Below are positions 38,228 to 63,790 of a DNA stretch of 64,000 nt, in pieces (the first letter of the stretch is position 1; every line of letters begins with the position of its first letter). The stretch is taken from positions 288,001-352,000 of the forward strand of contig CAWGBN010000002.1 of the NCBI GenBank assembly GCA_963820825.1, written 5' to 3'. This stretch comes from Vulcanimicrobiota bacterium. Its GTDB lineage: Bacteria; Vulcanimicrobiota; Vulcanimicrobiia; Vulcanimicrobiales; Vulcanimicrobiaceae. The position numbers and the translations under genes were made by a program. The notes beneath the pieces are model-generated. The model saw nothing but the letters and a program-made list of their open reading frames with translations. It did no database searches and was not told the origin of the DNA.

Positions 38228-38232
38228 CCGCG

Positions 38233-39691: not shown

Positions 39692-39730
39692 CAAAGGCCC
39701 GTCTCTCGGACGGGCCTTTGTTATTGGCTC
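39692..39730 (-). repeat. Most decayed att remnant: hairpin plus last 6 nt of tRNA-Asn
   Basis: caaaggcccg...cgggcctttg ttattggctc resembles 63681-63720. Confidence 0.6.
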
Positions 39731-39802
39731 GCGGCGTCAGTCGAGCAGAATGCGGAAGCGCATCGACGAGTTGCCGCAACGGAAGACGCCACCGCCTCTG
39801 AG

Positions 39803-39841
39803 CGTTAATGCGTTAACGCGACAAATACGTTGAGTTAGATT
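39803..39841 (+). promoter_or_regulatory. Palindromic operator plus -10 (shared motif, copy 2)
   Basis: CGTTAATGCGTTAACG-N8-ACGTTGAGTTAGA; matches 512..548 except one base and the spacer. Confidence 0.6.
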
Positions 39842-39926
39842 TTCTGATTCGGCGCAATCTTCTCGTGACGAGCGCGGCCCTCCCGATGTAGAATCCATTT
39901 TGGATTCAGTCTCCGGGAGGTTTCTT

Positions 39927-41489
39927 ATGACGAAGGCCCATTTTACGCTGGGCTCGGTGGCGATTTTTTCCGCAACAATCCTTTATGCGTGCGGCGGGTC
40001 GCATTCGGTGTTGCCCACGAACGCGCAACAGGGCGATGCGCTCTCTGCGAAATACGCCAACCTTTCTCAAGACTCGGACGAAAACGATGGACGTTCGCCA
40101 TCAGAGCCGGCGACGGTGGTCGTCGATCCGTCGCAGGTCGGGCCGCCCGTGACGCGGCTCGTAGCCGGCGCGACGCTTCCGGCATGGTACAATCTAACGC
40201 TCTCGGGGATCGCGCAATCCATATCGGCGGCGAATCTGGCGATCACGCGTTTCCCGGCCGGAGCGCAAGTCGACATTTATAATTGGCAGAGCGGCACAGA
40301 TGGTCCCGCAGGAACGCCCTGCGCCGGTAACGCGAAGCCCCAGTCCAACATCGACACCTTTATGCGCGACATCGCTCTGCCATCGGGCACGCAGGTATCG
40401 CTCGGCGTCAACTACGGCAGCAACCCCCAATGCAACCGCGGGAATACGCCGACAAACGCCGCCGCCTTCGTGTCGCACGTCGTCAACACTTACGGTCCGA
40501 GCGTCGTCGCTTTTTGGGAACTCGGCAACGAGCAATACGCGCCAGGGAGTATCGACTGCCGTCAGCCTGGGTGTAAATCGTCGCGCGACCCCGATCAATT
40601 CGCCGCCAACGAACCCGCATTTTACGATGCAATGCGTGCTGCAGGAGCACGAAATATTTGCATACCCGCCGACGCGGCCAACTCAAAGAGCCCGTGGAAT
40701 CCGGTTGTCTTCTCCAAGGCAAAATTCGATTGCGCGAATATCATCTACTATCCGCAACGGGTCCACACCAGCGATTCCTTCCTACTCCATGACGCTATTC
40801 CGGAGCTCGGTGCAGAGATCGCTTTAGTGAAGGCGCAGTTGGCTGCTGCAAATCGTGCCAACACGCCGATCCTACTCTCGGCGGTCTCGTCGGCACTGGG
40901 ACCGTACGGCAAACAGAGCCAAAGCATTGTCGGTGCGCTCTTTGCCGATATGGCGATGGGAGAGGCACTCAACGATGGCGTGGCCGCGATGATCTGGCAC
41001 GCCGGTTTTGGCAGCTGCGACGCGCGCTCTCGCGGGGGCGACTTTGCGTCCAAGGTATACGGCTGGCAGAAGTATGGCGGAGCCATGATTTTCAGCGACG
41101 GCCCTGCCAACAACTGCCCGGTCACCACGCCGCGCGGCACGCTGCTCGCGACGGCGAACGCGTTTCTTACTGCTGCGAAGTTTATAAATACGGGCGGAAA
41201 CATGGTGAGCGTCACAGTAAGCGGGAATCCCGACGTGCGCGCCTATGCGTCGAATAAAATGATCATGCTTTTCAATCTGAGCGAGACTGCACGGGCATCG
41301 GTTAGCGTCACGATCAACGGCGTCAGCAGTGGCGCCGGCGGCCTGAGCGTTCACTATAGCAAACGGCTCTACGACAAGTCGAAAAAGGGCGTTTGGGCCT
41401 CGCCAAGTCTCACGACGTTGCCTCCCTGGAAGGGCTCAATACACCTTTGGTTACGGCGCTGGAGCGTGACTGTTGCGCCGTTAGAATGA
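39927..41489 (+). CDS. Glycoside hydrolase (clan GH-A-like) lipoprotein
   Basis: Lipobox LYAC; RFPAG..VD.YNW, VNYG, WELGNE acid/base motif, C-terminal beta-sandwich. Confidence 0.7.
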   Translation: MTKAHFTLGSVAIFSATILYACGGSHSVLPTNAQQGDALSAKYANLSQDSDENDGRSPSEPATVVVDPSQVGPPVTRLVAGATLPAWYNLTLSGIAQSISAANLAITRFPAGAQVDIYNWQSGTDGPAGTPCAGNAKPQSNIDTFMRDIALPSGTQVSLGVNYGSNPQCNRGNTPTNAAAFVSHVVNTYGPSVVAFWELGNEQYAPGSIDCRQPGCKSSRDPDQFAANEPAFYDAMRAAGARNICIPADAANSKSPWNPVVFSKAKFDCANIIYYPQRVHTSDSFLLHDAIPELGAEIALVKAQLAAANRANTPILLSAVSSALGPYGKQSQSIVGALFADMAMGEALNDGVAAMIWHAGFGSCDARSRGGDFASKVYGWQKYGGAMIFSDGPANNCPVTTPRGTLLATANAFLTAAKFINTGGNMVSVTVSGNPDVRAYASNKMIMLFNLSETARASVSVTINGVSSGAGGLSVHYSKRLYDKSKKGVWASPSLTTLPPWKGSIHLWLRRWSVTVAPLE

Positions 41490-41534
41490 GAAGGGTGACA
41501 ACGTATCGACGACCCCGCACGGAATGGCCCTAAA

Positions 41535-41598
41535 AACGAAAAGACCGCCCCATCGTGGGCGGTCTTCGTTTCCTCTCCCGGATGCTGGACTCGAACCA
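41535..41598 (-). repeat. att remnant: hairpin plus 21 nt of tRNA-Asn 3' end
   Basis: aagaccgccc/gggcggtctt hairpin, then ccggatgctggactcgaacca identical to 63720-63740. Confidence 0.75.
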
Positions 41599-41781
41599 CG
41601 CAACCGCCTAGGCCGTAAAGTTAGTAAAGCACATCACGGTGAGATACTAGAGACGCTCTCGCAGCGTGAGGGTTTGCGGCTTCCAGCGCCTTGCGAAGCG
41701 CAAGCGCACGAGCCCCTCACCTTCAATTTCAAGATGCCTTAACTAAACCGAAGCGTCCCTGGACTGTAGTCGCGTAGGCGA

Positions 41782-42795
41782 TTATTGAACCGCGATGCCG
41801 TACGGGTCGGAGAGTTTCGTTCGGTCGCCTTTGATCTTGTTGATCGGCGCAACCCTGCCGGTTGCTCCCATCGCGTACTCGGTAATCCAGCCGGAGCCCG
41901 CATTAGAAGCATAGATCTTTCCGTTTGCGTCGACCGCAATGCCGAAGGGCAAATTGAGCTTCGTCCGAACGCCTTTGATATATTGGGCGGGCCGCACATC
42001 GCCGTTGGACCCAGCGGGGTAAACGGAGACCGCGCCGGGCTGCGGATCGTAGTTTTCCACATAGATATTCGCGTTGGCATCGAGCGCGAGCCCTTCTGCG
42101 ACGGTGAGCTTCGTCCGCGAGCCGATGATCGTTCGCGCCGGAGCAACATCGCCGGTGCTTCCGGCTGCGAACATTAGCACGCGGCTATTTGCGTTTGCAC
42201 AGTAGATATTTCCGCTGGAATCCAAAGCGATGCCTAACGTGGTCTCGAGCATCGTATAGCGGCCGGCGATATCGACAGTTGGAGCGACGTTTCCGTTAGC
42301 GTTTGAGGGGTAGGCGGTAATGGTGTCATAGCCTACGACGTAAATGTCGCCATTGACTGGATTGAGCGTGATGCCCGTGGGGTGATCGAGCTGCGTATAG
42401 GAGCCAGCAATCGTCTGCACAGGCGAGACGTTGCCGGTTGCGCTGGCCGCGTAGACGGTAACGGAGTTGCTGCTCGCATTTGAGACGTACATGTTCCCGA
42501 AGGCGTCGACGGCTATTCCTGTCGGATCACTAAGATGGGTGTTGCCGCCCAAGACGAATTGAATCGGCGCCCTGTCTCCCTTAGCGCCCGAACCATAGAC
42601 GGTGATGGAGTTGCCGCCTGCGTTCGCAACGTAGAGGCAAGGACATGACCTGGTAGAGTGCTTGCCGTGCGAACTGCTTTGGGACGCGACCGGCGTGGCC
42701 GACGTGGCCGGCGTGGCCGAACCGCCGCTGCACGCGGCTAGGAGCGAGACCACCGACGCGGCGGCGATCGTGGATCGAGCATAAGAGAGTCGCAT
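41782..42795 (-). CDS. NHL-repeat lipoprotein (CPCLxV family)
   Basis: RBS AGGAGG, lipobox LAAC, SCPCLYVAN, NHL repeats. Confidence 0.85.
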   Translation of the reverse strand: MRLSYARSTIAAASVVSLLAACSGGSATPATSATPVASQSSSHGKHSTRSCPCLYVANAGGNSITVYGSGAKGDRAPIQFVLGGNTHLSDPTGIAVDAFGNMYVSNASSNSVTVYAASATGNVSPVQTIAGSYTQLDHPTGITLNPVNGDIYVVGYDTITAYPSNANGNVAPTVDIAGRYTMLETTLGIALDSSGNIYCANANSRVLMFAAGSTGDVAPARTIIGSRTKLTVAEGLALDANANIYVENYDPQPGAVSVYPAGSNGDVRPAQYIKGVRTKLNLPFGIAVDANGKIYASNAGSGWITEYAMGATGRVAPINKIKGDRTKLSDPYGIAVQ

Positions 42796-43046
42796 CGCTG
42801 ATCCTCCTTCTGGGGCAAGTCCCATATGGAAATGATCCTGCTAGAAGTTCGGAAGCGTAGGTCCTGGGTCCCATGAACCTTTGGTCATCGAGGTGAAATA
42901 ACACCTCGAACCTCACCAATGGACTAAGATGGAGCGTGCAAGAGAGGTGTCCCGCAAGCTCATGGCCCGCAGCAACGGCATGAAGGCAGGGCTCCAGCCC
43001 CATAGAACATGCCGCCCACCTGTTATCGGCTCGGAGGAAGGCAATA

Positions 43047-43460
43047 GTGGGCAGTTTTCGGCTAGCAACAGCCTTGGGATTCGGTATTACGTTTTTAGCG
43101 GGGTGTGGAACAAATCAACAGATCGATCCATCGCAGGCGACACACACGCAGAACGTTACGCGGGTAGGCTCGACAAAACCCGATAGTACAATTTATTGGG
43201 AACCGTCCAAGATAGTTTTAAAAGGCTCCGAGCATGATAACCCCGTGCTCTATCTTCCCACCGGTCATAAATGGGGCTTGGGCAATGACACCTGCGGCAC
43301 AAGGGTATTCGCAGCGACGATCAAGCAAGGAACCTCCGGGAGCCTTACATGGTACGAGTGGGATTTTCACGCCACAGCGTCGGGTCCGTTCCGGTGCGTC
43401 TACGTCGCCCATGATCGGGTCACAAAGGAGAATGGTAGGCTAATCGTCATCGCTCGATAA
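43047..43460 (+). CDS. Small lipoprotein
   Basis: RBS GGAGG, GTG start, lipobox LAGC. Confidence 0.65.
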   Translation: MGSFRLATALGFGITFLAGCGTNQQIDPSQATHTQNVTRVGSTKPDSTIYWEPSKIVLKGSEHDNPVLYLPTGHKWGLGNDTCGTRVFAATIKQGTSGSLTWYEWDFHATASGPFRCVYVAHDRVTKENGRLIVIAR

Positions 43461-43555
43461 GCAAAAGCGGCGTTAAGATTCCAAAAAGAATTCGCAAAAT
43501 TGCGGGCCCTTTTCTCATCGGGACATCGCTAACAAAGCATAAATTGAGATTTTTG

Positions 43556-43603
43556 AACGGGCCTTTGTTTATTGGCTCCCACTGCTGGACTCGAACCAGC
43601 GAC
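43556..43603 (-). repeat. att remnant: half hairpin plus variant tRNA 3' end
   Basis: aacgggcctttgtttattggctcccactgctggactcgaaccagcgac. Confidence 0.75.
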
Positions 43604-43892
43604 GCGCAGGCAGGTGGCCGCTCGGTCGCTCAGAAAAGACTGGGCATAGGGACTGCGTGATTCGGTCCTGAGCTGACGCACTACACCTCAACCAGAACGT
43701 TCTCCAGAGCGGGTTTTCGCGTCCTAAAGAACGCGATGGAGGGTATTCTTATGTCAAAGCAACATTGTGCGCTCGCGCCGATCCTGTTTGCTCTATTGCT
43801 ACAAGCATGCGCGGGTCCAACCGGCGGCCTCGAGTCTACTTCGTCATCCCGAAACGCTTGGGGCGCTAATCAGATTCCGTCAACTTCTCAAA

Positions 43893-44005
43893 AATAAAGG
43901 CCCATTACGCAACGGGCCTTTATTCATTGGCCCCGGATGCTGGACTCGTTCTTCGACTCGCGCCTCCTGCGCTCTGCTCAGAATGACGGACCCGCTGATT
44001 AACAG
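43893..44005 (-). repeat. att remnant: hairpin plus tRNA-Asn 3' half interrupted by a 40-nt insert
   Basis: tggccccggatgctggactcg [43949-43988] gacccgctgattaacag. Confidence 0.8.
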
Positions 44006-44025
44006 AAACTCAGCCATGGCGAGGT

Positions 44026-45048
44026 TTATTGAATCGCGATGCCTCCCGGGGAATCGAGCTTCGTCCTCGCGCCCTTAATCGTACGAATCGGCTCGACGTT
44101 GCCTCCGGTGCCGGGAGCATACACTGCTATGATGGGACCGCCGTTGACGACGTAGACGTTCTCGCTTGCATCGACTGCAACGCCGGCAGGATTGCTAAGC
44201 TTCGTTCTTCTGCCGTGGATTATCCAACTCGGCGCGACGTTCCCGTGCGCGCCGACTGGGAACGATGTAACGCAGTTGCAGAGCGCGCCTGCTGTGTAGA
44301 TGCTTCCGCCGCCCACGGCGACTTGCTCGTTATCGTAGAGACGCGTTCGGTGGCCGCCGATTGTTTGTATAGGAGCGACGTTGCCGGTCGCGCCGGCGGA
44401 GTAGACGGTGATGGTTTGGCTGTTGAAGTTGGGAACGTAGATATTGTTGCTCGTATCCAACGCGAGAGCGTACGGGACGTCGAGCCCGGTATTGGAGCCG
44501 GTGATCGTGTTGACCGGGGCGACGTTGCCGGTCGCGCCGGCGGAGTAGACGGTGATGGCCCCCTGCCCGCTTGGGCCACCAGCTCCGTTAGTGACGTAGA
44601 GGTTCTCTGATGAGTCCAGCGCAACGCCAATGATGTAGTTCATGGTGGTATTGGAGCCGGCGATTGTGCGGATCGGGCTGACGTTCCCGTTCGAGCCCGC
44701 GGCATAGACCGTGACGGAATCGTTGAACTCGCCGTTCACGTTGGCGACGTAGATGTTGCCGCTCGCATCGAGGCCGACATCGGTTGGATCGATCAGTCCC
44801 GTCCTACTGCCGCTGATCGTCTGTATCGGCTTGACGTTGCCGGTTGCGCCGATCGGATAGACGGTTACGGCGTTGCTTCCGGTATTCGCGACATACAGAC
44901 ACGGACACGGTGAGGTGCTCCTCTTTCCCATGAAGTGGTGCTGTTGAGGAACGGGGTCCGATGGGGATAGCGTATCGCTCATCCCGCCGCACGCGGCCAA
45001 GAGCGCTGCCGTAATGCACGCTCCCATCACGCTGCACAGATATCTCAT
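44026..45048 (-). CDS. NHL-repeat lipoprotein (CPCLxV family)
   Basis: RBS AGGAGG, lipobox LAAC, TSPCPCLYVAN, NHL repeats. Confidence 0.85.
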   Translation of the reverse strand: MRYLCSVMGACITAALLAACGGMSDTLSPSDPVPQQHHFMGKRSTSPCPCLYVANTGSNAVTVYPIGATGNVKPIQTISGSRTGLIDPTDVGLDASGNIYVANVNGEFNDSVTVYAAGSNGNVSPIRTIAGSNTTMNYIIGVALDSSENLYVTNGAGGPSGQGAITVYSAGATGNVAPVNTITGSNTGLDVPYALALDTSNNIYVPNFNSQTITVYSAGATGNVAPIQTIGGHRTRLYDNEQVAVGGGSIYTAGALCNCVTSFPVGAHGNVAPSWIIHGRRTKLSNPAGVAVDASENVYVVNGGPIIAVYAPGTGGNVEPIRTIKGARTKLDSPGGIAIQ

Positions 45049-45396
45049 TCCCGACCTCCTTTCAGAAGTAACGAGCTACGCCTCAAACCTTGGCTTGGCG
45101 CCGCCCTCGAGACGTGCCCGATCAGGTTCGATCCGACGCTCAGAGAACACCCAATAGCCCCGGTTGTTAGCGGAGGCAACTAGTATACAGCTAAAGGCTG
45201 CCCGCCCCTGCCGGCAGCGCGTCCCCAAACTTTGCCGTCGCCGCGGTGGACACCGTGTCCACCGGGAAACAGCGAGGTCCAGTTCACCAAGCCCATTCGC
45301 TGGGTCACACCGTAGTCGGTGACGATTCGGTCGCGTTCCGCGAGAAGGTCGGCGATGACATCGTCGCCGGTACGATCCCGGCTGCGGAAATACGCC

Positions 45397-45461
45397 CTTA
45401 GGCTGCACATTGCCGCACCAAGACAAAGGCCCGCTTCACGAACGGGCCTTCTGATTAACAG
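45397..45461 (-). repeat. att remnant: arm repeat, hairpin and anticodon-side core, with an internal deletion
   Basis: cttaggctgcacattgccgcaccaagacaaaggcccgcttc...cgggcctt ctgattaacag aligns to 63652-63759. Confidence 0.8.
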
Positions 45462-45660
45462 CATCGCAAACTACGCACGCATCCGCTGCTGGGAGCGGCG
45501 AAGGCATGTGGCGACATTTGCCCACAGGAAGCCGTCGAGTAAACGTTGTGGATGGGCACCCGCGCCCGGGCAAAGGCGCTCGCCGGATAATCGCGAATCG
45601 CGCAAATGGCAGGAATCTCCGTCACGAAACACGAGACGCGGAGATTCAAGGGAGGCTTTT

Positions 45661-46860
45661 ATGCGATTGGAGCTTCGTCGTACGGCACTCCTATGCTGCT
45701 TGGTGGTCTCAGGGTGCTCGCACCCTTCGGGCTCGACGCCGGCGTTGCCGCCGAGCCTCGACCAGCGCGCGTTGGCGCGCACGACGGCGTTACCGGATAG
45801 CGCTTTTGATTCACTCTATTCGTTCGGCAAAAATCCCTACGATGGCAGCCAGCCCACGTTCCTCGTACCGTACAACGGGAAGCTCTACGGTACGACCTGC
45901 TGCGGCAGCCCTGGAGGTGAGGGCACCGTCTTCAGCCTCACGCCCGACGGCAAGGAGACGATTCTTCACACCTTTATGGGAAGCGACGGCGGCGTACCAA
46001 ATGGACCGCTGCTCAACGCCGGCGGGGTCTTTTATGGAACCGTCAGTTCGGGGGGAGGGCCGAGCAGTCTCGGCGCCGTGTTCAGCATCGACACCGACGG
46101 AAACTTCAACGTCGTCCGCGCGTTCCAAGGCGGCTCGAACGACGGCCTTCAGCCGTACGGCGGACTCGTCGAGTTAGACGGCACGCTCTACGGCACCACG
46201 CTCGGGGGCGGCGCTAATGGAGACGGCACCGTGTACGGCATCACCCCTCAAGGAGTCGAGCATCTGGTCCATTCGTTTAACGGTTCCGACGGCCAAGAGC
46301 CGCTTTCAACGCTGATCGTCGTCAACGGCGACCTGTACGGTACAACCCTTACCGGAGGCAAGTTCGGCGGCGGAACAATTTTTCGCGTTACCACCGCCGG
46401 CAAAGTGAAGGTGCTGCATAACTTTGGAAGAGGCAACGACGGCAACGCGCCATATTTCGGCGCGTTGGTCGACGTTGACGGCACGCTGGTCGGGACGACG
46501 ATTATGGGCGGCAGAAAAGGCGTCGGTACGATCTTCGAGAGCACTCTCGACGGCACGGAGAGCGTGCTCTATAGTTTTCCCGGTACGCCCGCAAAGGGCT
46601 GCGAGCCATACGCCGGACTCATCGAGTTCAACGGCACGCTGTATGGCACCACCGTCGGCGGATCGGGTCCGGGCTGCAGCGGCCACGGTACGGTGTATCA
46701 ATACGTGCCGAGCGGCGGTGTGATGACACTTCGCAAATTTCCCGGCGGGAACGGCGGCGCTGCCCCTGTCGGCTTGACGTCAATGGGTGGAAGTATTTAT
46801 GGAGTGACGCTTGGAGGCGGCCGTTACGGGCAAGGACTGTTTTATTCCGTGACTCCGTAG
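45661..46860 (+). CDS. GloVer-type repeat lipoprotein
   Basis: RBS GGAGG, ATG 45661, lipobox VSGC, seven G.LYGTT repeats. Confidence 0.85.
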   Translation: MRLELRRTALLCCLVVSGCSHPSGSTPALPPSLDQRALARTTALPDSAFDSLYSFGKNPYDGSQPTFLVPYNGKLYGTTCCGSPGGEGTVFSLTPDGKETILHTFMGSDGGVPNGPLLNAGGVFYGTVSSGGGPSSLGAVFSIDTDGNFNVVRAFQGGSNDGLQPYGGLVELDGTLYGTTLGGGANGDGTVYGITPQGVEHLVHSFNGSDGQEPLSTLIVVNGDLYGTTLTGGKFGGGTIFRVTTAGKVKVLHNFGRGNDGNAPYFGALVDVDGTLVGTTIMGGRKGVGTIFESTLDGTESVLYSFPGTPAKGCEPYAGLIEFNGTLYGTTVGGSGPGCSGHGTVYQYVPSGGVMTLRKFPGGNGGAAPVGLTSMGGSIYGVTLGGGRYGQGLFYSVTP

Positions 46861-46902
46861 CGCTTTGAGCGGCCAGTACGAGTTCCGGCGCCCGGAAAGT
46901 GC

Positions 46903-49711: not shown

Positions 49712-49936
49712 CCCTGATAGTTCAAAATCTACGCGGGGCGCGCCTTGCCCCGCGCTGGGGGGAACCGAGGAAGCAAATCCCGACCGTGTGGGGCCGGGCC
49801 GGGAGTCGAATCAGCGCTCGGGGAATCCGGCAGATACCGTCCGCTACTGAAAAGTGTTATTCTGTCTGCGATGGATCGGCAGTGGCTAGCTGCGCTCGAG
49901 TGACGATCCGAACGTCCAGCTCGTAATAGCCATTAA

Positions 49937-50218
49937 ATGGTTGCAAGAGCCGACTCACGATTGCTACGTCGATCGCCGAGAAAGCCTGCGGCTTTGCGCG
50001 CACGACCAGGCCGGGATTTGGCCGGCCTCTACGACCTGCGTCACACGGCCATCGAGAATCTCGTCGCCTCGGGAGTGCCGATGGATGTGATGCACGTTCT
50101 TGCCGGTCACGCGAACGCAGACGACGCTCCGGCACACAGCAAGCCCAGCGAGGAGCGCCGTCGCGCAGCCGTCGATTCGGTCGGCAAATGGCTCTCCGAG
50201 CGCACGGTCGCAAAATGA
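49937..50218 (+). pseudogene. Tyrosine integrase C-terminal remnant
   Basis: LYDLRHTAI..L...G.....V...LAGH (HxxR-like and LGH boxes); TTLRH in an adjacent frame; ends 100 nt before an att core. Confidence 0.75.
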
Positions 50219-50226
50219 GGACGGTT

Positions 50227-54598: not shown

Positions 54599-55077
54599 GC
54601 CTTTAATCCTTCCGCCGACCCCGTAGTCGGCTTAAGCTCCTAGTAGTAGCGCAGTATCTGTTCGCGTCCGGTGCTTGTAACCTTGCAAACCTCGCCGCGG
54701 CGTTCGATTGGATTCGCTCCTACTCGTCACCGGCGAAAGTCAGAGCACTCTGTATGGTTGTTGGCTCAGTGGCGCCCGCCCAATCAAGCATGAGCGGCCG
54801 TTTGAACGAGAAGTCCGATGCTACCGCAACACCATGTTGCCGATAGAAAGCGGCGCGCCGTTGATTGTCTTCCTTCAGTGGCAAAACCGCGACCTTGATC
54901 ATGAACGCTGCGTAGCGCTCCGCGCTAAGAGATGACATGTATCGAGCCTCGGCTTCTGCGTTCTCAAAACTCTGCACGTCCCTCGGTGAAATTACAAATG
55001 CGAGGACTGACGTGAGGTGAGAAAACGGCTCAAGTTGAAACTGTGAGTTCCGGGCCTCTGGCCCTAAGGAGACTCAC

Positions 55078-55374
55078 GTGAAAAAGACTCGCTTCACCGA
55101 AGCGCAGATCGTCGCGATCCTCAAAGAGCTCGACGCCGGCACGACCGCGACGGAGCTTGGTCGCCGGCACGGAATTCATGCCAATACGATCCGCCTGTGG
55201 CGCGATAAGTACGCCGGGATGCAAACCAGCGATCTGGTGCGCATGAAACAGCTCGAGGCCGAGAACACGCAGATGCGGCGAATCATCACCCGCCAAGCCC
55301 TCGAGATCGACGCCGTCAGGGAGCTGATCTCAAAAAACGGCTGGGGCCCGAGCAGCGCAAAGAAGCGGTCGTAG
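55078..55374 (+). CDS. IS3 OrfA
   Basis: KKTRFTEAQIVAILKE HTH; slippery AAAAAAC at 55332-55338. Confidence 0.85.
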   Translation: MKKTRFTEAQIVAILKELDAGTTATELGRRHGIHANTIRLWRDKYAGMQTSDLVRMKQLEAENTQMRRIITRQALEIDAVRELISKNGWGPSSAKKRS

Positions 55375-55376
55375 CG

Positions 55377-55890
55377 TTGCACACCAAGGGCCTGTCCACG
55401 TTCCGGGCTTGCGCTATCGTTGCGCAGCCCTACCGATCGCTGTTCAACAAGAAAAAGGCTGAAAAGCGCGCAGACACGCGGCTGAAGGAATGCATCGGCA
55501 AACATGCGCAGCAGCGGCCGCGGTTCGGCTGGCGCCGGCTGTTGATCCTTGCGCGCCGTGAAATACCTGGCACCGGGGAGTACCGATTTCGAAGGCTTTA
55601 TAAGGCTCTTGGGCTTCAAGTACGGCCTCGAAAGAAGCGCAAGGTCAACTACGTCCGCGGAAACGCGATTTCGACCGTTAGTCGCCCCAACGAACGGTGG
55701 TCGATCGACTTCATGCACGACAGTCTTGGGAACGGCCGGGCCTACCGTACGATGAACATCGTTGACGACTTCACGAGCGAATGCCTCGCTTTGGAGCCGG
55801 CGTTCTCGTTTGGTTCTCATGATGTGACGCGTTGCTTCGAGGAGATCGCGTTCGAACGCGGCTTGCCGGCCGCCGTGCGTTTTGACAACG
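55377..55890 (+). pseudogene. IS3 OrfB (rve) N-terminal part; continues at 57447-57523, 58899-59074 and 60348-60363
   Basis: WSIDF, IVDDFTSECL, VRFDN|GPEFTS...FIEPG|KPTQNAKIES...TPLE|YANKF*. Confidence 0.85.
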
Positions 55891-57446
55891 AGCTAAGTAC
55901 GAAAGTCAACCCCACTAGTAGGCATAACGATGCCCGTCGACAGCAAAGCCGAGCTTGCACACCCTTGCCGAGATGCCCCTCGACGACGCAATAGCTCCAA
56001 CCATGATGACACAAGGTCTCGGAAACGAGCCTTCACCGAGCTCAAAACGGAGTTTGCTGCCGATCGGGAGATCCGAGCATTATCTACGAGGTCGTAGTCG
56101 CCTCAACGGCCCAGCGAAGGGATTCTCCCGTCGTGCACCGCCGCTTCGAAATAGTGGCGGTACTCTTTTCCAGATTTGATCAAGCCGTAAGCGACGCGCG
56201 CAATCTTCGCTGCTACGGCGACATACGCTCTTCTTTTGAGATCGGCATCCAGTGGATCGCGACGAACGTAGTCGTCGTACTTTTTCCGAAACGAGTTTCG
56301 GCGCTGATTGATGGCAGCATTGGCTGCCATCCAGAAGGCCCATCGCAGTCGAGCATTGCCGCGTTTGGAGAGCTGCGGTCGGCCGCGTGACGTTCCGGAT
56401 TGCATCGTCGACAAAGAAAGGCCACAGTAGTTAAGAAATTTGCGATGGTGGCTGAAGCGGCGTAAATCTCCGCCTTCAGCGAGAACCGTTAGAGCAACAA
56501 TAGGGCCGATTCCAGGGATAGAGCGCAGGCGCTGATAATCGATGTTGTTCTCGAGTTGTGCGTCAATGAGCTCCTGAAGCTGCCGTCGAAGCTTCATGAG
56601 GCCGATGTACTGCTCAATCGCGAGTTGGAACATCTGGGCGGCCTGCGAATCCGCCGCCACTGGAATTCCCACGCTTTCCTTGGCAATTTCGTAGTAGCTG
56701 GCGACGAGACTTTGCCGAGATGTAAAATGCCCTCCCGCTGCAGTAAACCTTTTGACGAATGTCCTTTTGGTATATTGAAGGACCGTGGAAGGGCATGGCG
56801 CTATGCGCATGACCTCCAAGAACCACTCGCCGCGCGGATTGCTCAGGAAGGGCTCTGCTTCCGGGAAGTACAGCGGCAAATAGTGCGTCATCAGCGAATG
56901 GTAGGCTCGCGTCTTTCGGTCGGTGATCTGCCGATAGGTACCGAGCAGTTCCTGAAGATCTTGGTTGCCACGTTGCAGTGGATCGGCGAACACCTGCGTT
57001 GTACCGCTCTTGAGCAAATGCAGAATCACCTGCGCATCCTTCGGATCGTTTTTATCCCACGAGTTGAACAGCGCTTCTCTCGTCCGATTTGTAGCGATCG
57101 ACGATACGAAATGAACGCGGTGGCCTCGCCGGAGCAAGAAGTTCGCCAGGGGTCGGTGATAGTCTCCGGTTGGTTCCAGCGCGACCTCGCAGGGAAGATG
57201 CGGCGCCAGAATCCCTGCCAACTCGTCGAAACCTTCTTGCGTGTTTGGAACTGTCAAACGCCGGCGAATGCCGGCCTCGTCCTCCAGCAGCGCCACGTGT
57301 CGGTTTTTGGCGACGTCGATTGCGAGCCAGGCGGGCGTCGTTGGAGCAGCACGGAACTTTGCCATAGGGTCGTTGCCTCCAGCGGAGATGAGTCAGATAC
57401 ACCTCCGTTCGCCATGGGGGCAGCGCCCCGTCTTGTATGTATCACG
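55891..57446 (-). mobile_element. IS110-family element
   Basis: Removing it restores GAC AAC GGC CCA GAG of the IS3 gene; ACG core at both ends; no terminal IRs. Confidence 0.9.
56103..57365 (-). CDS. IS110-family DEDD recombinase/transposase
   Basis: AIDVAK, LEPTG, KNDPKDA, IPGIG, CGL...QSG, SKRGNARLR. Confidence 0.92.
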   Translation of the reverse strand: MAKFRAAPTTPAWLAIDVAKNRHVALLEDEAGIRRRLTVPNTQEGFDELAGILAPHLPCEVALEPTGDYHRPLANFLLRRGHRVHFVSSIATNRTREALFNSWDKNDPKDAQVILHLLKSGTTQVFADPLQRGNQDLQELLGTYRQITDRKTRAYHSLMTHYLPLYFPEAEPFLSNPRGEWFLEVMRIAPCPSTVLQYTKRTFVKRFTAAGGHFTSRQSLVASYYEIAKESVGIPVAADSQAAQMFQLAIEQYIGLMKLRRQLQELIDAQLENNIDYQRLRSIPGIGPIVALTVLAEGGDLRRFSHHRKFLNYCGLSLSTMQSGTSRGRPQLSKRGNARLRWAFWMAANAAINQRRNSFRKKYDDYVRRDPLDADLKRRAYVAVAAKIARVAYGLIKSGKEYRHYFEAAVHDGRIPSLGR

Positions 57447-57523
57447 GCCCAGAGTTTACGAGTCGCGCGATGCTGCAATGGGGTGCAGAGCAGAAAGTCC
57501 ATCTACACTTCATCGAACCCGGC

Positions 57524-58890
57524 GATTACGTCCCGGCGCGTGGTGTATGAACTGCGACCCCGACGAAGTGGGCGATCAGCTGATAACGGCCGAAAGCCTG
57601 GCGATCTGATTGTCGCTTACGGCGTTCATTCCTTCGAGCTGCATGTACCGCCGCTGCAACTGCCATTCATCGTTCTGTTCCAGCAGCAGCGCACCGACGA
57701 GTCGTACGATCGCGGCCTCGTTGGGAAAGATGCCGACGACGTCAGTCCGGCGTTTGATCTCGGCGTTGATGCGCTCGAGCGGGTTGGTTGAAGCGAGTTG
57801 TTTGCGGTGGGCTTTGGGAAAGGCCATGAAGGCGAGAACGTCTTCTTCGGAATCGTCCAACATCGCTGAGAGCTTGGGAAACTTCTCGCGGAGTTGATCG
57901 GCGACGGTGCGCCATTGTTGGTGCGCCGCCTCGGCCGTTTCTTGAGCGAACACCGTATTGATCAGCGCACGAACCATTTCTCGCTGCCCTTTGCCGGCGT
58001 GGGCTAGCGCGTTGCGCATGAAGTGCACGCGGCAGCGCTGCCACGTCGCCTTGAAGACTTTGGCGATCGCGGCTTTGAGACCGATGTGGCGAATCGGAGA
58101 TCACGAACTTGACGCCACGCAGTCCGCGCCGTCTCAGGCTTCTGAGAAACTCGCGTCCAGAACGGCTCGGCTTCGCTGGGACCCGTCGCCAAGCCTAAAA
58201 GCTCGCGCGTACCGTCGGTATTGACGCCAACGGCCAGTATTACGGCGACCGAAACGATGCGGCCCGACGCGCGCACTTTCACGTACGTCGCGTCGATCCA
58301 CAGATACGGCCAGTCGCCCTCGATCGGCCGATTGAGAAACGCTTGCACGCGCTCGTCGATCTCGCTGCACAAGCGCGAGACTGGCTCTTGGAGATCCCCG
58401 TCATCCCCAGTGCCTTCACCAGTTCGTCAACCGAGCGGGTTGAGATGCCCTGAATATACGCTTCCTGGATCACCGCCGTCAGCGCTTTCTCGGCCGTGCG
58501 ACGAGGCTCCAGGAAGCCAGGGAAATAGCTGCCCTTGCGCAGCTTAGGGATGCGCAGATCGACTGCGCCGGTGCGCGTTTCCCAGAGCCGGTCGCGATAC
58601 CCGTTGCGGCAGTTCTCGCGAGGAGCGGCTCGCTCGCCATAGGCGGCGCCGCAGAGGGCCTCCACGTCCATCTCCATGAGTTTCTGGGCGGCGAGATGAA
58701 GCATGTCGCGCACGAGATCGACGTCGGGGCCCTTTTCAGCGAGCTCCGTAAGTGCGATACTGGTCTTGGCCATTGTGGGTTCCTTTCGTCGGTAGTTTCT
58801 TTGCAAAAACAACCTTCGCCGAAAGCCACGATGGCCGCTCTCTATCCTATGAGGGCGGCCCCTTCATACACCACGCCCTGGGACACGATC
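57524..58890 (-). mobile_element. IS256-family element
   Basis: 27-bp imperfect IRs; 8-bp target duplication AACCCGGC (57516-57523 and 58891-58898). Confidence 0.9.
57576..58773 (-). pseudogene. IS256 transposase, frameshifted
   Basis: [53 protein letters not shown] across three frames. Confidence 0.85.
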
Positions 58891-59162
58891 AACCCGGCAA
58901 ACCAACGCAAAACGCCAAGATCGAATCGCTAAACGGCCCGATCCGAGACGAGCTGCTCAATGCCCACGTTTCACGACGATCTAAACGAGGCGCGGGCGCT
59001 TGCCGCAGTTGGAGAAAGGACTATAACGAGGTCCGGCCGCACTCGTCTCTCGGCGGCTTGACGCCGCTGGAGTAAGAGGTGGCCTCGGTTAGTCGGACAG
59101 CCTGATATGTGATGATTTCGCTCCCTCTGGGTCGAAAAGATCCGTGAAAAGGAGCAGTCATC

Positions 59163-59462
59163 TTGAAACGTTCTCGCCGCAACCACACGCCGGCCTTCAA
59201 GGCTAAGGTGGCGATCGCCGCGATCAAGGGCGATCAGACCGTCGCCGAGCTCGCCAAGCGCTTCGACGTCCATCCGAATTCGATCGTGCAGTGGAAAACC
59301 CAACTGCTCGAGCGAGCCGATGAAGCCTTCGATGGCGACGGACCAAAGCAGAACGGCCCCGATATCAAAGAGCTTCACGCCAAGATCGGCCAGTTAGCGC
59401 TGGAGAACGATTTTTTAGAACACGCGCTCGGACGTATCGACGGGTCGAGCGCAAAGCGATGA
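59163..59462 (+). CDS. IS3 OrfA (inner element)
   Basis: RRNHTPAFKAKVA..., KIGQLALENDFL; slippery TTTTTTA near 59411. Confidence 0.85.
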   Translation: MKRSRRNHTPAFKAKVAIAAIKGDQTVAELAKRFDVHPNSIVQWKTQLLERADEAFDGDGPKQNGPDIKELHAKIGQLALENDFLEHALGRIDGSSAKR

Positions 59463-60284
59463 TCGATCGCGACCACGCTTTGCCGCTCTCGCATCAAGCG
59501 GAGCTGCTGGACCTCTCTCGCAGCGGTCTTTACTACGGAGCCGTACCGGTCTCGGGCAGCGGATCTCGAACTCATGCGTGAGATCGATCGGCTGCACACC
59601 GACTACCCGTTCGCCGGCGCAAGAATGCTGCGCGACTTCCTGCGGCTCAGGGGCTATCGTGTCGGCCGCCGGCATATCGCGCGGCTGATGCGCCTGATGG
59701 GCATTGAAGCGCTCTATCGCAAGAAGAAAGGCACCAAGACCAATCCGGAGCACCCCGTCTTCCCCTACCTTCTTAGAAACCTCGTCATCGAACGCCCGAA
59801 TCACGTCTGGGCAGCGGATATCTCGTACATTCCGATGCGCCGCGGTTTCTTGTATTTGTTCGCGGTACTCGACTGGGCAACGCGACGGGTTCTGGCTTGG
59901 CGGCTCTCCAACAGCTTGACGACGGATTTCTGCATCGATGCCGTCGAGGAGGCGATCGCAAAGTACGGCTGTCCTGAAATCTTCAACACCGATCAAGGAT
60001 GCCAATTCACCGACAAGGATTTCGTCGGCATGCTCAAGACTACGAGATCGCGATCAGCATGGACGGCCGGGGCGCCTGGCGCGACAACGTCTTCGTCGAA
60101 CGCTTCTGGCGCTCGATTAAGTACGAAGAGGTCTATTTGCGTGCTTACGACTCTGCGAGCGAGGGTAAGCACTTCATCGGCCGCTACGATCGATTCTATA
60201 ACGCAAACCGACCGCATTCGTCGCTCGGCGGCCAAACGCCGGACGCGGTATACTTCAGTCAGGCCGACCAAAAAGGCGGCGTAA
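59459..60284 (+). CDS. IS3 OrfB (inner element) with apparent indels
   Basis: WAADISYI, FNTDQGCQF, DNVFVERFWRSIKYE. Confidence 0.8.
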
Positions 60285-60413
60285 CTGGCGGAGTCATCAC
60301 ATAACGGGTGCCGATTTCGTGTCCAAAAAACCGGCGCCACCTCTGTATGCGAACAAGTTCTAAAATGACACCTGCTCACAGTTCCTCCTTATGCTAAAGA
60401 CCACCTCACGTCA

Positions 60414-60620
60414 GAGCCGCCATCTTGTTTCCAACCAGAGCCTGGATAGGGGTAGATTGGCATAAGTGCCATGCCGCTTTGCAAAATCGCGAGTGCCTCA
60501 GTAACCGTAAGGTCGCCATCGGTCCAGCCATGATACGGTACGTAGCGTAAGCGACATTTGTACTTGCTGGCAAGCGAACTGATCCTTCCCGTGCTGAGGT
60601 TATACAGAACGCGTGTCGTT
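60414..60620 (-). pseudogene. Possible DUF1906-like gene fragment truncated by the IS3 end
   Basis: Minus frame reads LRYVP...DLTVTEA..ILQSGMALMPI...GW up to the IS boundary. Confidence 0.4.
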
Positions 60621-60739
60621 CCAGCTCAGATCTTTACGATTCCTTGAAGGTTTCACTGTAGAGTTAGCCTAACGGCTAGGCGCGTGGACGCTTTTGAGCC
60701 CCACGACTGCGTAGCGACCGATTCAGAAGGAGATTAGCT

Positions 60740-61720
60740 GTGCGATTTCATCTGCTAGCCAGCCTGGTTATCGCCGCAGCATTTGCCGGATGCTCGAGCG
60801 CGCAACTACAACGCGGAAACCCGGCGCTGCCGAGTTCGCCGTCAAAAAGCGTGCCGGCCGCCATCGGGCCGACGCCCGCGCCCATAGCGACGGCAAGTTG
60901 GGAGGACAGCATCTTTGTGGTCGACACCGGTGTCCCCGCCGTCAAGCTCTTTGCGCGCGGAACGTGGGCAGCCAATGGATCGTTCACCAATGGTGTGGCC
61001 AGTCCGTACGGCATCTGGAGTGATCAGAAATATCTCTACGTACCGAACAGTATCAACAATGGCGCGAACGTAGAGGAGTATCGCCCCGACGATACGACTC
61101 CAATTTTTACCTATACGAACGGCCTCTCGGGCAACGCGATTAATGTTTCGACTCAGGACCTTGGCGGGGTTCACTACGTGTTCGTCGTCGTTGGCAGTAC
61201 CGGCTTCGGTAACGGCTACGTTCGGCAGTTTCGTCGTGACACGAATACGGTCATAGCGACGTGCACGCCTAACGGCCAGGGGCAGTTTGGAGTTGCTGGC
61301 GTTGCGGTCGACCCCAACGGCAACGTATTTGTTTCGTACTACGGCTCCGACAGCTCTACGCACATTGTCGAGTACGTTGGGGGCCTGGGCGGATGCGCTC
61401 AAACTCCGCTGATCACGCTACCGACAGAGGGAGCAGATATGGTTCTAGATCATGCCGGTAGGCTGGTCCTTTGCGACGGTGTAAGCACCTGCGACATCAT
61501 CAATCCGCCGTATACGAGCATATCAGGGACGCTCGGCTCCGGCTTCGATGCTCCATTTTATGTTACGATAAATGCAACTAACCAACTCGCCTACGTGACC
61601 GACGGCTTAGGCGTTCACGTCCTCAGCTATCCCAGCGGCGCGCCGCTACATACAATCGGTGCTTCTGCTGGCCTACATAATCCCGTCGGCGTCGTAGATT
61701 GGTTCAACTACGGTTTTTGA
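60740..61720 (+). CDS. Beta-propeller lipoprotein
   Basis: RBS AAGGAG, lipobox FAGC, GVAVDPNGNVFV; paralog of 62446..63471. Confidence 0.8.
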   Translation: MRFHLLASLVIAAAFAGCSSAQLQRGNPALPSSPSKSVPAAIGPTPAPIATASWEDSIFVVDTGVPAVKLFARGTWAANGSFTNGVASPYGIWSDQKYLYVPNSINNGANVEEYRPDDTTPIFTYTNGLSGNAINVSTQDLGGVHYVFVVVGSTGFGNGYVRQFRRDTNTVIATCTPNGQGQFGVAGVAVDPNGNVFVSYYGSDSSTHIVEYVGGLGGCAQTPLITLPTEGADMVLDHAGRLVLCDGVSTCDIINPPYTSISGTLGSGFDAPFYVTINATNQLAYVTDGLGVHVLSYPSGAPLHTIGASAGLHNPVGVVDWFNYGF

Positions 61721-62082
61721 TCCGCCGCGGCCGTTTGCGTTGGCCAATCGAACTCGGGGCAGGCAACAATGCTGCTCCAAATGCTCTGCCGCGGCAACAC
61801 CGGCGCGCGCGAACCAAACCCGGAAGTGAGCGACGTGGAAGCGCCGCGCGACCAGAAGTGTTTCAACGTGCGCGCCCGTAGCCTCAAACTGTATAGAGCA
61901 GGGACTCCTAAAGCCTTAGAGCGTAGCCGTGCGTAGTCGCCGACGGTGCAAAAGCCCGTAAAGTACCCGCTTTTTCGGACGCCACCGGCAGCGCTGACGC
62001 CTTAGGGGCCTTAGGGCAACCAACCAGTCGCGTCGAACATCTTAGGGCGCTGATCCGTTCCGGGAGCTAGGAGGCACGGCCC

Positions 62083-62367
62083 ATGAGAAGGTTCGCACTC
62101 AATCGCTTCGCTCTAACCATGATCGTCGCGGGTGCATTCCTCGCGAGCTGCGACGGATCGCAACCGCAGATCGGCGCACCTGGCGCGACGAACCTGCCCA
62201 TTGTCAATCGTGAGCGAAAGCGTTCCCGAACGTTGAGCTATTCGGGAAGCCCACAAAGCTTCAACGTGCCGTTCGCGCGCTGGTACCCGTATCTCCACCT
62301 ATTTCCGGCGGCGTCAGTGCTGCCGGCGCTCGCCGCTGCCAGAGGCGAAGTCTTTATTATTTCTTGA
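62083..62367 (+). pseudogene. Truncated lipoprotein (N-terminus of the Gly-rich family)
   Basis: RBS AGGAGG, lipobox LASC, YSGSPQSFNVP like 15099..15893, then similarity stops. Confidence 0.55.
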
Positions 62368-62445
62368 CTATTGTGAGGTAGCTTTAGCTGTTAAGCAAAC
62401 AGGCGCCATTTAGGCCCCGACGCTAGCTTCTATCGGGAGTGGCTC

Positions 62446-63471
62446 ATGCGATTTCATCGGACACTTCTGACCGCGACGATCGGGGCCATGCTGATCGCTG
62501 CGTGCACGAACGCGCAGTCTGAGATAGGTAGCTCGACGTTGCCTCGCTCGCCCGTACGTGTCGGGCCGGACGCGCCCGGGCCAACGCCGGCACCGCTGGC
62601 AACAGCGAGCTGGGAGCAGAGCCTCTTCATTAACGACGTCGTGACCGTGAACAACGGTGTGTGCAGCACCTCTTGTCCGACCAAGCTCTTCAAGAACGGT
62701 ACCTGGACTGCTAACGGATCTTTCAACACCAGCGGATACCCCATGGGCCTCTGGAGCGATCAGAAATATTTGTACGTCCCCAACTTCGTTAACGCGACCA
62801 CCGCAAGTGTAAACGAGTATCGCCCCAACGATCCTTCACCGATCTTCTCCTATTCGAACGGTTTGACATTCGTCACATCTGTGTCGACCCAGCTGCTGGG
62901 GAACGTACATTACGTGTTCGTTACGGGAGGATACAACACGAACTACGAGGCGAACTTCGTTCAGCAGTACCAGCGGGACACAAACACGATTATTGCCACG
63001 TGCTACCCCCATGGCAACGTAAATCTCATGGGCGTCGCCGTCGCTCCTAACGGAAACGTATTCGTCGACTACAACGACAGTCTCGACGTCGGGCACCTCG
63101 TCGAGTACGTCGGGGGCCTGGCCGGATGTAACGCAACGCCGTTGCCGATGACCTTCCTGGGACATGTGACCGGGATAGCGCTCGACAACGCCGGAAGGCT
63201 CTTGATTTGCAACACTCACGGTGCGGCGGCCATCGACGTCATCGACCCGCCGTATACCAGCATATCCGGAACGCTTGGCTCGGGCTTCATGTTCCCGGAT
63301 TCCATCTCGATCAATGCAAACAATAACCTTGCCTTCGTTGCCGATGGGCTCCTTGAGCAAGTCAGAGTGCTCCAATACCCAAGCGGCGCACTCGTTCAGA
63401 CGATTGGTACCGCCAATGGGTTGAACGGGCCGCGCGGTGGCGCCGTGGAGTGGGTCAACTACGGCTTTTAG
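62446..63471 (+). CDS. Beta-propeller lipoprotein
   Basis: Lipobox IAAC; shares GPTPAP.ATASWE, WSDQKYLYVPN and W.NYGF* with 60740..61720. Confidence 0.8.
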   Translation: MRFHRTLLTATIGAMLIAACTNAQSEIGSSTLPRSPVRVGPDAPGPTPAPLATASWEQSLFINDVVTVNNGVCSTSCPTKLFKNGTWTANGSFNTSGYPMGLWSDQKYLYVPNFVNATTASVNEYRPNDPSPIFSYSNGLTFVTSVSTQLLGNVHYVFVTGGYNTNYEANFVQQYQRDTNTIIATCYPHGNVNLMGVAVAPNGNVFVDYNDSLDVGHLVEYVGGLAGCNATPLPMTFLGHVTGIALDNAGRLLICNTHGAAAIDVIDPPYTSISGTLGSGFMFPDSISINANNNLAFVADGLLEQVRVLQYPSGALVQTIGTANGLNGPRGGAVEWVNYGF

Positions 63472-63680
63472 TCGGTCTACGGCTTAACCAGCTCGAACGA
63501 AATCGTCGTGCCTGTAGAGAGCGCCGGCAACAGCGGCAGCGGCGTATACGGCGACGTGCCGGCGCCGATGCCGATCGGCGAATGCTTCTGTTCCATCGGA
63601 TTCGATCTAATAGCGCTCTGGCTGGACCGGCCGAGTTCCAATCTTGGCTGACTTAGGCTGCACATGGCTGCACCCAAGAC

Positions 63681-63710
63681 AAAAGGCCCGCTTCGTAAAC
63701 GGGCCTTTGT
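63681..63710 (-). terminator. Intrinsic terminator downstream of tRNA-Asn
   Basis: aaaggcccg/cgggccttt stem with flanking U-runs. Confidence 0.75.
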
Positions 63711-63714
63711 TTAA

Positions 63715-63790
63715 TGGCTCCGGATGCTGGACTCGAACCAGCGACCCGCTGATTAACAGTCAGCTGCTCTACCAACTGAGCTAATCCGGA
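63715..63790 (-). tRNA. tRNA-Asn(GTT)
   Basis: TCCGGATTAGCTCAGTTGGTAGAGCAGCTGACTGTTAATCAGCGGGTCGCTGGTTCGAGTCCAGCATCCGGAGCCA; cloverleaf, GTT anticodon, encoded CCA. Confidence 0.97.

Follow-up and report, generated by a model that had tools for sequence, protein, structure and literature searches.

Downstream of the tRNA-Asn gene of a Vulcanimicrobiota bacterium, displaced copies of the tRNA 3' end alternate with small gene-bearing units. This array lies in a 64,000-nt stretch of DNA that is referred to here as the window (G000:C2:288001-352000). It is likely, in our judgement, that the tRNA gene is an integration hotspot and that the units form a tandem accretion array of former tyrosine-integrase islands, the integrases of which have since been lost. 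The source assembly, G000, is a metagenome bin of 2.98 Mb in 9 contigs and is 85% complete.

Displaced copies of the tRNA-Asn 3' end

The intact tRNA-Asn(GTT) gene was the sole tRNA gene that ARAGORN detected in the window. As it is encoded on the minus strand and its 3' end is at 63715, positions below 63715 are downstream of the gene. The last 42 nt of the gene were taken as the attachment (att) core. Using blastn-short and direct reading of the junctions, seven remnants of this 3' part were identified besides the intact gene, all of them in the same orientation and on the 3' side of the tRNA. Two remnants are exact and five are decayed. An earlier description of the locus, made from the letters alone and called the original prediction below, had also counted at least seven such copies. 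Beginning at the tRNA, the sites are as follows:

63715-63790, minus strand: intact tRNA-Asn(GTT)
63718-63759, minus strand: att core, from the discriminator base to the anticodon loop, without CCA
52391-52432, minus strand: displaced core, 42/42 identical
50319-50360, minus strand: displaced core, 42/42 identical
45397-45461, minus strand: decayed junction; degenerate pair at 45401-45418, hairpin, then directly CTGATTAACAG; internal deletion of about 38 nt
43895-44005, minus strand: decayed junction; hairpin, TGGCCCCGGATGCTGGACTCG, insertion of about 40 nt, then GACCCGCTGATTAACAG
43556-43607, minus strand: decayed junction; half hairpin and truncated core, 48 nt at 92% identity; a 0.3-kb gap follows to 43894
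41540-41607, minus strand: decayed junction; hairpin at 41540-41567, core at 41578-41598 matching 21/21, then diverged
39692-39730, minus strand: oldest recognisable junction; hairpin and TGGCTC

Two of the decayed junctions gave blastn-short matches that extended over 45397-45450 and 43556-43603, and the core pieces at the 43.9-kb junction were located at 43911-43948 and 43989-44005. The 13-nt match at the 39.7-kb junction (39710-39722) was not significant alone (E=5.2); the segment 39687-39730 was 88.9% identical over 45 nt to the hairpin and tRNA end of a relative, G118. In dinucleotide shuffles the expected number of exact 42-nt matches was 0.00, and a blastn-short search of the whole 2.98-Mb assembly with the core revealed no copies beyond the array region. 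Four remnants terminate at ...TTAACAG (repeat family D15), exactly at the core boundary, in agreement with the predicted stop of four copies at the anticodon loop. The predicted rise of decay with distance was likewise observed, the least decayed junctions being those nearest to the tRNA. The terminator-like hairpin that had been noted at each copy was found at 7 of the 8 sites, but the 43556 site has only half of it. The GC content is 0.53-0.62 over most of the array and 0.64-0.67 across 47-50 kb, the value for contig C2 overall being 0.633.

The junctions delimit the following units:

52433-63714, plus strand: unit A, 11.3 kb, about 6 kb without insertion sequences (IS); no integrase
50361-52390, plus strand: unit B, 2,072 bp measured between the starts of its two cores; one gene, no integrase
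45462-50318, plus strand: unit C, 4.9 kb
44006-45396, plus strand: unit D
41608-43555, plus strand: unit F
39731-41539, plus strand: unit G

Arm repeats beside the cores

Pairs of the short motif GGCTGCAC are present at 50445, 52306, 52517 and 63656, in addition to the degenerate pair at 45401-45418, and in the whole G000 genome the pair was found only at these junctions. The pairs are placed 63-86 nt to the left of the cores at 52391 and 63718 and 81 nt to the right of the cores at 50319 and 52391. Units A and B thus each carry GGCTGCAC at both ends. The arms contain the following features:

63650-63714, plus strand: right arm of unit A, with a GGCTGCAC-AT-GGCTGCAC pair at 63656-63673, a bidirectional terminator hairpin at about 63682-63708 and an encoded CCA
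52517-52535: left-arm pair of unit A
52306-52323: right-arm pair of unit B, with a hairpin at about 52340-52385
50445-50463: left-arm pair of unit B
50221-50247: right-arm pair of unit C, GGTTGCTCTACGG/TCGCTCTACGG, differing from GGCTGCAC; a hairpin follows

The right arms of units A and B are identical at 28 of 28 positions (arm 63650-63714 against 52300-52327), and over 81 nt the left arms show 86% identity. The right arm of unit B combines the pair of unit A with the hairpin of unit C. Similarity of the sequences flanking the 42-nt repeats extends over at most about 290 nt, at 86-90%.

Integrase-bearing islands at the same core in relatives

For comparison, 90 other genomes of the genus were searched with up to 3 mismatches allowed in the core. 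The core was present in 64 of the 90 genomes and in two or more copies in 17, the number per genome ranging from 0 to 3 across the genus. Eight genomes had copies on one contig and strand, which yielded 10 bounded units, or 12 together with the two of the window. A tyrosine integrase is encoded in 7 of the 12 (7 of the 10 in relatives), and these seven units are 7.3-17.1 kb in size:

G017 unit: 7.3 kb, tyrosine integrase
G035 unit: 12.1 kb, tyrosine integrase
G118 E1 unit: 13.1 kb, tyrosine integrase and terminase
G059 unit: 13.5 kb, tyrosine integrase
G005 Y unit: 14.3 kb, tyrosine integrase
G116 unit: 16.0 kb, tyrosine integrase
G118 E2 unit: 17.1 kb, tyrosine integrase

The integrase ends within about 100 nt of the tRNA core in G005, G017, G116 and G118 E1, and it is 0.9-1.6 kb from the core in G035 and G059 and 3.3 kb from it in G118 E2. 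The five bounded units without an integrase are 1.35, 1.9, 2.07, 2.9 and 11.3 kb long; three of them are from relatives:

G111 unit: 1.35 kb, one gene for a 388-aa protein; no integrase relic
G054 unit: 1.9 kb, one SIMPL/DUF541 gene; no integrase relic
G005 unit: 2.9 kb, a 341-aa homologue of the product of window 62446-63471 and an internal worn core; no integrase relic

The arms were scanned in the six integrase-bearing units with a clear layout, G118 E2 being set apart. In five of these six units, an identical, unit-specific 8-mer pair was present on both arms at a distance of 74-106 nt from the core; in G017, the remaining unit, one arm bears a pair and the other a single copy. The motifs of the relatives were GGCTGTAA, GGGCGTCA, TGCCCTAC (in two units) and GGGACAAC. 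For G118 E2 a pair was found on the left arm only, the right arm being degenerate. Units A and B have the same arm layout as these islands, with GGCTGCAC as their motif. Because their pairs are situated where intact relatives carry element-specific pairs, we regard the pairs as putative arm-type integrase-binding sites. The direct repeats have a period of 10-12 nt, with one pair per arm. The integrases of the two TGCCCTAC units (G035 and G059) are 79% identical to each other, and integrases associated with different motifs are 28-42% identical, which suggests that several diverged integrase lineages may use one common tRNA-Asn core.

Among the larger elements, only G118 E2 corresponds to units A and B. 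It has arms of the GGCTGCAC/GGCAGCAC type, an integrase, a DUF4238 gene and an IS256 element, and its cargo includes 8 lipoprotein-like or GloVer genes that are homologous to cargo of the window.

A different arrangement was seen in G113 (36908-36970, reversed L061+L062). Just downstream of its tRNA-Asn, 19-nt direct and 16-nt inverted fragments of the tRNA 3' end replace the usual hairpin.

The left-arm motif was also scanned in 185,579 species genomes, which gave 25 loci. Three of these are contigs of the genus, 2 are in one other genome and 20 belong to unrelated taxa; the latter are presumed chance matches. A GGCTGCAC pair in G034 was rejected as a member of the system, because it is part of a coding region of very high GC content and has no core in its vicinity. 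On one 3.2-Mb contig of another organism, with a GC content of 0.67, two exact copies of the 22-mer GTTGGCTGCACAATGGCTGCAC are separated by 19.2 kb (L090:10001-10022 and L073:10001-10022). A tRNA 3' fragment lies about 110-130 nt from each copy; the fragments come from different tRNAs and are oppositely oriented, with a weak integrase-like match between them. It is possible that in this other lineage the arm motif works with a different core.

An integrase relic in unit C and the search for a matching enzyme

The C-terminal remnant of a tyrosine integrase was detected in unit C:

50021-50218, plus strand: last 65 codons of a tyrosine integrase, within ORF 49937-50218

The encoded tail is 72% identical to residues 335-399 of the 401-aa integrase of G017, which adjoins tRNA-Asn, and it matched Pfam PF00589 with E=0.0067. 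The translation of the ORF ends '...LYDLRHTAIENLVASGVPMDVMHVLAGHANADDAPAH...'. In a hand alignment, a proline occupies what we take, by the usual C-terminal motif of integrases, to be the position of the catalytic tyrosine. Judged by these similarities, ORF 49937-50218 is an integrase relic. The tail is followed by a pair motif related to that of G017. The original prediction had proposed to look for an intact integrase of this kind elsewhere; one was found in the relative G017, but none in G000.

To look for further traces, 5 integrases of the same genome, 10 integrases of relatives and all G118 ORFs were compared with the window by tblastn, and only 50021-50218 matched. PF00589 had five matches in G000, all outside the array and none at either of its ends. 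No integrase of this 85%-complete assembly resembles the unit C relic or the G118 E2 integrase. When the latter was compared with 91 genomes of the genus, no G000 match was obtained at E<=1e-40, and its closest relatives (46-57% identity) are encoded in genomes without GGCTGCAC arms.

The following course of events would produce the array. The attP of an incoming island would have carried a copy of the last 42 nt of the tRNA, which span the discriminator base to the anticodon loop. By recombination, the tRNA would have been rebuilt and the old 3' half displaced outward, and repeated insertion would have left the at least seven remnants. The integrase genes would have been lost later, in units A and B presumably by deletion, so that the 65-codon tail in unit C would be the survivor. 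The cargo of NHL beta-propeller, GloVer and similar lipoprotein genes has in part been swapped between species. The original prediction had also proposed repeated site-specific integration at tRNA-Asn as the origin of the tandem array, and this part of it is retained. Its further claim, that the units are inherently minimal and were inserted small, is not supported: in relatives the same att layout flanks integrase-bearing islands of 7-17 kb, and unit C contains a relic. The contrary case that it had named, units that are deletion relics of large elements, holds for unit C but is plausible and unproven for units A and B.

Several observations weigh against an origin from integrase-bearing islands. 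Neither Pfam nor tblastn revealed an integrase relic in units A, B, D, F and G, so that deletion of the gene from these units is inferred and not shown. An integrase could be missing from the 85%-complete assembly. Single-gene units without an integrase occur in 4 species, which is unexpected under random decay. The sole candidate for the cognate integrase of the GGCTGCAC arms, judged by sequence, is that of G118 E2. Its homologues (E<=1e-40) are absent from the arm-bearing genomes G000, G013, G002 and G053; arm-bearing G005 has only a 38% match, which is the integrase of its own unit Y. Moreover, the G118 E2 integrase is in an unusual position, 3.3 kb from the arm with DUF4238 and IS256 in between. 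The 'AT' pair and hairpin adjoin the tRNA or a displaced core in at least 6 other species and may be an old shared flank, not an arm of unit A. All complete cores of G000 carry the tRNA variant of its own clade; accordingly, the cargo shared with the G111 species did not arrive inside an att-bounded unit of that lineage. Finally, the frame breaks of a large gene in unit C (see below) could be assembly indels.

Cargo genes, their exchange and their relocation

Genes were named using Pfam on 37 ORFs, NCBIfam and a scan for the lipobox pattern. The cargo is as follows:

52614-53189, minus strand: unit A, NHL fragment (Pfam), without lipobox
53394-54542, minus strand: unit A, GloVer protein (NCBIfam/Pfam)
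55078-60284: unit A, pieces of IS3, IS110 and IS256 (Pfam)
60740-61720, plus strand: unit A, putative lipoprotein; 'FAGC' is present though the lipobox pattern missed it
62083-62367, plus strand: unit A, putative lipoprotein
62446-63471, plus strand: unit A, lipoprotein with lipobox; weak NHL match (E=0.0063)
50810-52000, plus strand: unit B, NHL lipoprotein ORF, lipobox ITGC; the start is likely near 50972
45319-46860, plus strand: unit C, GloVer ORF, the reading frame of which extends to 46860
47085-49810, minus strand: unit C, cyclase-AAA-TPR (STAND-type) gene, read in at least 4 frames
44026-45048, minus strand: unit D, NHL lipoprotein with lipobox
41782-42825, minus strand: unit F, NHL lipoprotein with lipobox
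43047-43460, plus strand: unit F, second lipoprotein, 137 aa
39900-41489, plus strand: unit G, protein of 529 aa

The three full-length NHL genes and 62446-63471 all carry a lipobox. The 341-aa protein gave a weak match to a designed beta-propeller among PDB sequences. A related contig, compared with unit C, shows single-base gaps at 48561, 48911 and 49259. The 529-aa protein had no Pfam or PDB match; its 'YACGG' near residue 30 resembles a lipoprotein signal, though the lipobox pattern was unmatched, and its position near clan-A glycoside hydrolases in a protein atlas is a lead only. The predicted cargo was therefore recovered as far as NHL, GloVer and lipoprotein genes are concerned, but the glycoside hydrolase stands as that atlas lead. 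As had also been predicted, the 37 scanned ORFs of the window include no phage structural, packaging or conjugation domain and no intact integrase; IS transposases and one integrase tail are the only mobile-element genes among them.

The locus varies among relatives, as expected by the original prediction: core carriers have 1-3 cores per genome. The four genomes that share the tRNA variant of G000 have single cores followed by unrelated downstream DNA and no array, which indicates that the array is specific to the G000 lineage. The 1.35-kb unit of G111 is common to G114 at 86% identity, with its distal core worn to 15 nt, so such units can last long.

Close matches to the cargo were found at two metagenome loci with 99.98% identity to G111. 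The unit D gene (44005-45219) is 92.8% identical to the G111 species. For the unit B gene (50821-52067) the value is 94.5%, and a further 100 nt (50658-50757) are 93% identical. Syntenic chromosomal DNA of the two species, taken as background, is 73-84% identical. The D-like stretch of G111 begins at the same core boundary, beside an integrase relic. The B-like stretch is without cores and arms except for one GGCTGCAC copy about 100 nt upstream, and the shared stretch of unit B stops about 300 nt short of both cores. The raised identity and the limits of the stretches together point to recent movement of cargo between species, in which unit B did not travel as an arm-to-arm unit.

The GloVer and cyclase-AAA-TPR block of unit C (45485-49782) is single-copy in G000. 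In at least 10 other species the same block, at 81-90% identity, lies 37-60 kb from tRNA-Asn on its other side, and in G111 it is directly downstream of tRNA-Leu(TAA). As it is single-copy here and has a different location in relatives, the block was either relocated or re-acquired into the tRNA-Asn array. The tRNA-Leu locus of G000 is occupied by another integrase-bearing element.

The tRNA-Leu locus has features of its own. The only tRNA-Leu(TAA) gene of G000 (C9:8556-8901, L003) is interrupted in the anticodon loop by 260 nt, which begin just after the first anticodon base according to our reading of the sequence. In its intron mode, ARAGORN called an intron-bearing tRNA; Rfam returned no group I intron or other family for the insertion, and the G111 copy is without it. 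An integrase gene (C9:7286-8461) with its own pair GTTAGACAAATGTTAGAAAC lies just downstream of the tRNA, marking a second hotspot. A displaced 25-nt 3' fragment of tRNA-Leu is present at C2:403401-403425, near the contig end. Taken with the integrase on C9:1-8547, this fragment suggests that C2 and C9 adjoin each other in the genome; a single element of at least 17 kb probably spans the end of the former and the start of the latter.

To the left of the array, window 20594-39690 holds further genes of the lipoprotein, GloVer and NHL families. An S8 peptidase encoded there (21654-22958) is 72% identical to the product of a gene located two genes past the array in G118. Given the same gene families and this peptidase, the variable region may reach as far as about 23 kb. 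At 25314-25388 and 29131-29227 there is a repeat of about 75-95 nt, of which three copies at 81-90% identity occur in a locus of the G111 species (L092: 2154-2250, 4619-4699 and 13993-14080). In several species, large AAA/NB-ARC-TPR (STAND-type) regulators are found repeatedly in the variable DNA that follows tRNA-Asn, for example at window 29239-31476 (minus strand), L017:14609-17203 and L018:13374-15881.

Alternative explanations

The units could instead be inherently minimal, non-autonomous cassettes that were inserted in trans one by one, making the array a tRNA-anchored counterpart of integrons, as the original prediction had it. We hold this to be possible but unlikely. It would fit the 5 integrase-less units among the 12 bounded ones, four of which measure 1.35-2.9 kb with one main gene, the complete matched arm pairs and exact cores of unit B, and the finding that GGCTGCAC arms occur in 6 species, none of which has an integrase just upstream of the right-arm pair, its usual position. 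The identity of the B and D cargo to the G111 species (94.5% and 92.8% against 73-84% for syntenic DNA) also speaks for it. However, the shared stretch of unit B ends at 50658 and 52067, and the copy in G111 is coreless with one upstream GGCTGCAC. The occurrence of the 1.35-kb G111 unit in G114, at 86% and with a worn distal core, indicates old vertical inheritance. In addition, unit C keeps an integrase tail, integrase-bearing islands with like cargo and arms exist, the assembly holds no integrase resembling the relic or that of G118 E2, and the cargo genes are distributed over both strands, each behind an upstream region of its own. A related idea seems to us quite unlikely, namely that the 1.35-2.9 kb units of four species, with a tRNA-Asn core at either end, are trans-mobilised cassettes shuffled by diverse island integrases with this core in common, which would make them the functional equivalent of an integron and diversify the lipoprotein beta-propellers.

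It is highly improbable that the array is only in part a product of serial integration, the 'AT' pair and hairpin being the native flank of the tRNA and several core copies having arisen, without any mobility of elements, by local duplication, gene conversion or homologous recombination between repeats. This flank is indeed kept beside the tRNA in G111, G114, G057 and G013 and beside displaced cores in G005 and G118, where two cores are preceded by the same flank of about 68 nt. Hairpins and pairs have been reassorted among units, as in unit B with the pair of A and the hairpin of C, and the tRNA variant in every G000 core is that of the host. Yet serial integration would place a native flank at the far end of the array, whereas here it abuts the tRNA, as if borne by unit A. 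In 4 species, the left arm, about 150 nt long and including an AAT pair, is invariably located on that side of a displaced core which faces the element; four remnants end exactly at the core boundary, and integrases adjoin the same core in relatives. An assembly artefact is scarcely credible. The source is a metagenome bin, 85% complete and in 9 contigs, and contigs could have been misjoined, but 42-nt repeats with at most about 290 nt of flank at 86-90% are too short for misjoins, like arrays are found inside contigs of 0.5-3.2 Mb in G118, G116, G035 and G059, and the decayed copies differ from each other.

Relation to known systems

As in integrons, small and in part single-gene units are stacked at one site, and the repertoire varies between genomes. 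Integrons have a resident integrase with attI and a promoter at one end, and their attC-bounded cassettes are mostly promoterless and uniform in orientation. The array has no resident integron integrase or attI, the boundaries are tRNA 3' halves and not attC hairpins, and the genes are on both strands with their own upstream regions. NCBIfam models of integron integrases gave weak sub-threshold matches only, to the integrase of a relative. The comparison with integrons breaks down at every defining feature that was tested, and the description as an integron-like cassette stack is not supported, also because the stretches shared between species exclude the arms of unit B.

In attP sites of the lambda type, arm-type integrase-binding sites are located beside the core. 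The array resembles these in its short direct repeats, which are found on either arm at a distance of tens of nucleotides from the core and differ with the integrase, at least as judged from the motifs. It differs in having one pair per arm with a period of 10-12 nt, and no excisionase or accessory-protein sites were identified.

In tRNA-targeting islands of the Islander collection, as set out in PMC4383910, a regenerated tRNA and a displaced 3' fragment in the same orientation flank an element with an anticodon-centred att site and a tyrosine integrase. The array shares the regenerated tRNA, the displaced 3' fragments and the end of identity in the anticodon loop. An integrase in each unit beside att was not found in the window. 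As the collection, according to that text, admits only islands that contain an integrase and measure at least 2 kb, every unit of the window would be filtered out. The table given there lists, among 3,919 islands, all with integrases, 125 tandems of two or more and 4 of three or more (PMC4383910), so that the present array is deeper than the table lists. The seven-junction array is deep, but mostly fossil.

Accretion has been described as a process in which an island, integrated site-specifically at the 3' end of a gene, is reduced by decay to an attL/attR unit devoid of integration genes and the next element enters the regenerated site, and the islands related to ICESt1 and ICESt3 in Streptococcus thermophilus form a tandem of mostly decayed elements (PMC5704250). 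The integrase-less remnants of our array would be comparable to cis-mobilizable elements (CIMEs), and units A and B fit the definition written there. Both keep attL and attR, their cores being exact and their two arms present. Apart from the tail in unit C, no integration or transfer genes are left (37 ORFs and tblastn). As to descent from an autonomous element, unit C keeps a relic and units A and B have none. By analogy, A and B would be movable only by an integrase acting in trans or by a new island in cis. Unlike the CIMEs of S. thermophilus as presented in that text, the target is tRNA-Asn in Eremiobacterota, there are at least seven junctions, and lipoprotein beta-propellers make up the cargo. 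Unlike CIMEs related to integrative and conjugative elements, as described in the same text, neither the window nor the annotated islands of relatives contain conjugation genes, and descent is shown for unit C only.

A joint on a single contig that might represent a circle or an empty site (52433->63682) was discarded as a repeat artefact; one of its sides measured 31 letters and was in the repeated core. The sole public run used for this search shared 0.12 of words, and at 90% likeness it gave pieces of related organisms.

Implications

The array probably represents a known mode of foreign-gene build-up and not a new cassette system. It would be a far weightier finding if it were true that the small units move on their own. 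Island finders that demand an integrase or a minimum length miss every unit described here, which calls for caution in their use. Mobile-element biology is essentially undescribed in the Eremiobacterota, an uncultured soil phylum, and a literature search for Eremiobacterota and integrase gave nothing on mobile elements by title or abstract. In these bacteria, NHL and GloVer lipoprotein genes move between species at the tRNA-Asn locus. At least five arm-repeat motifs are combined there with one 42-nt core, and the integrases vary alongside. This natural att series could be used to study how the arm specificity of heterobivalent integrases changes while the core stays constant.

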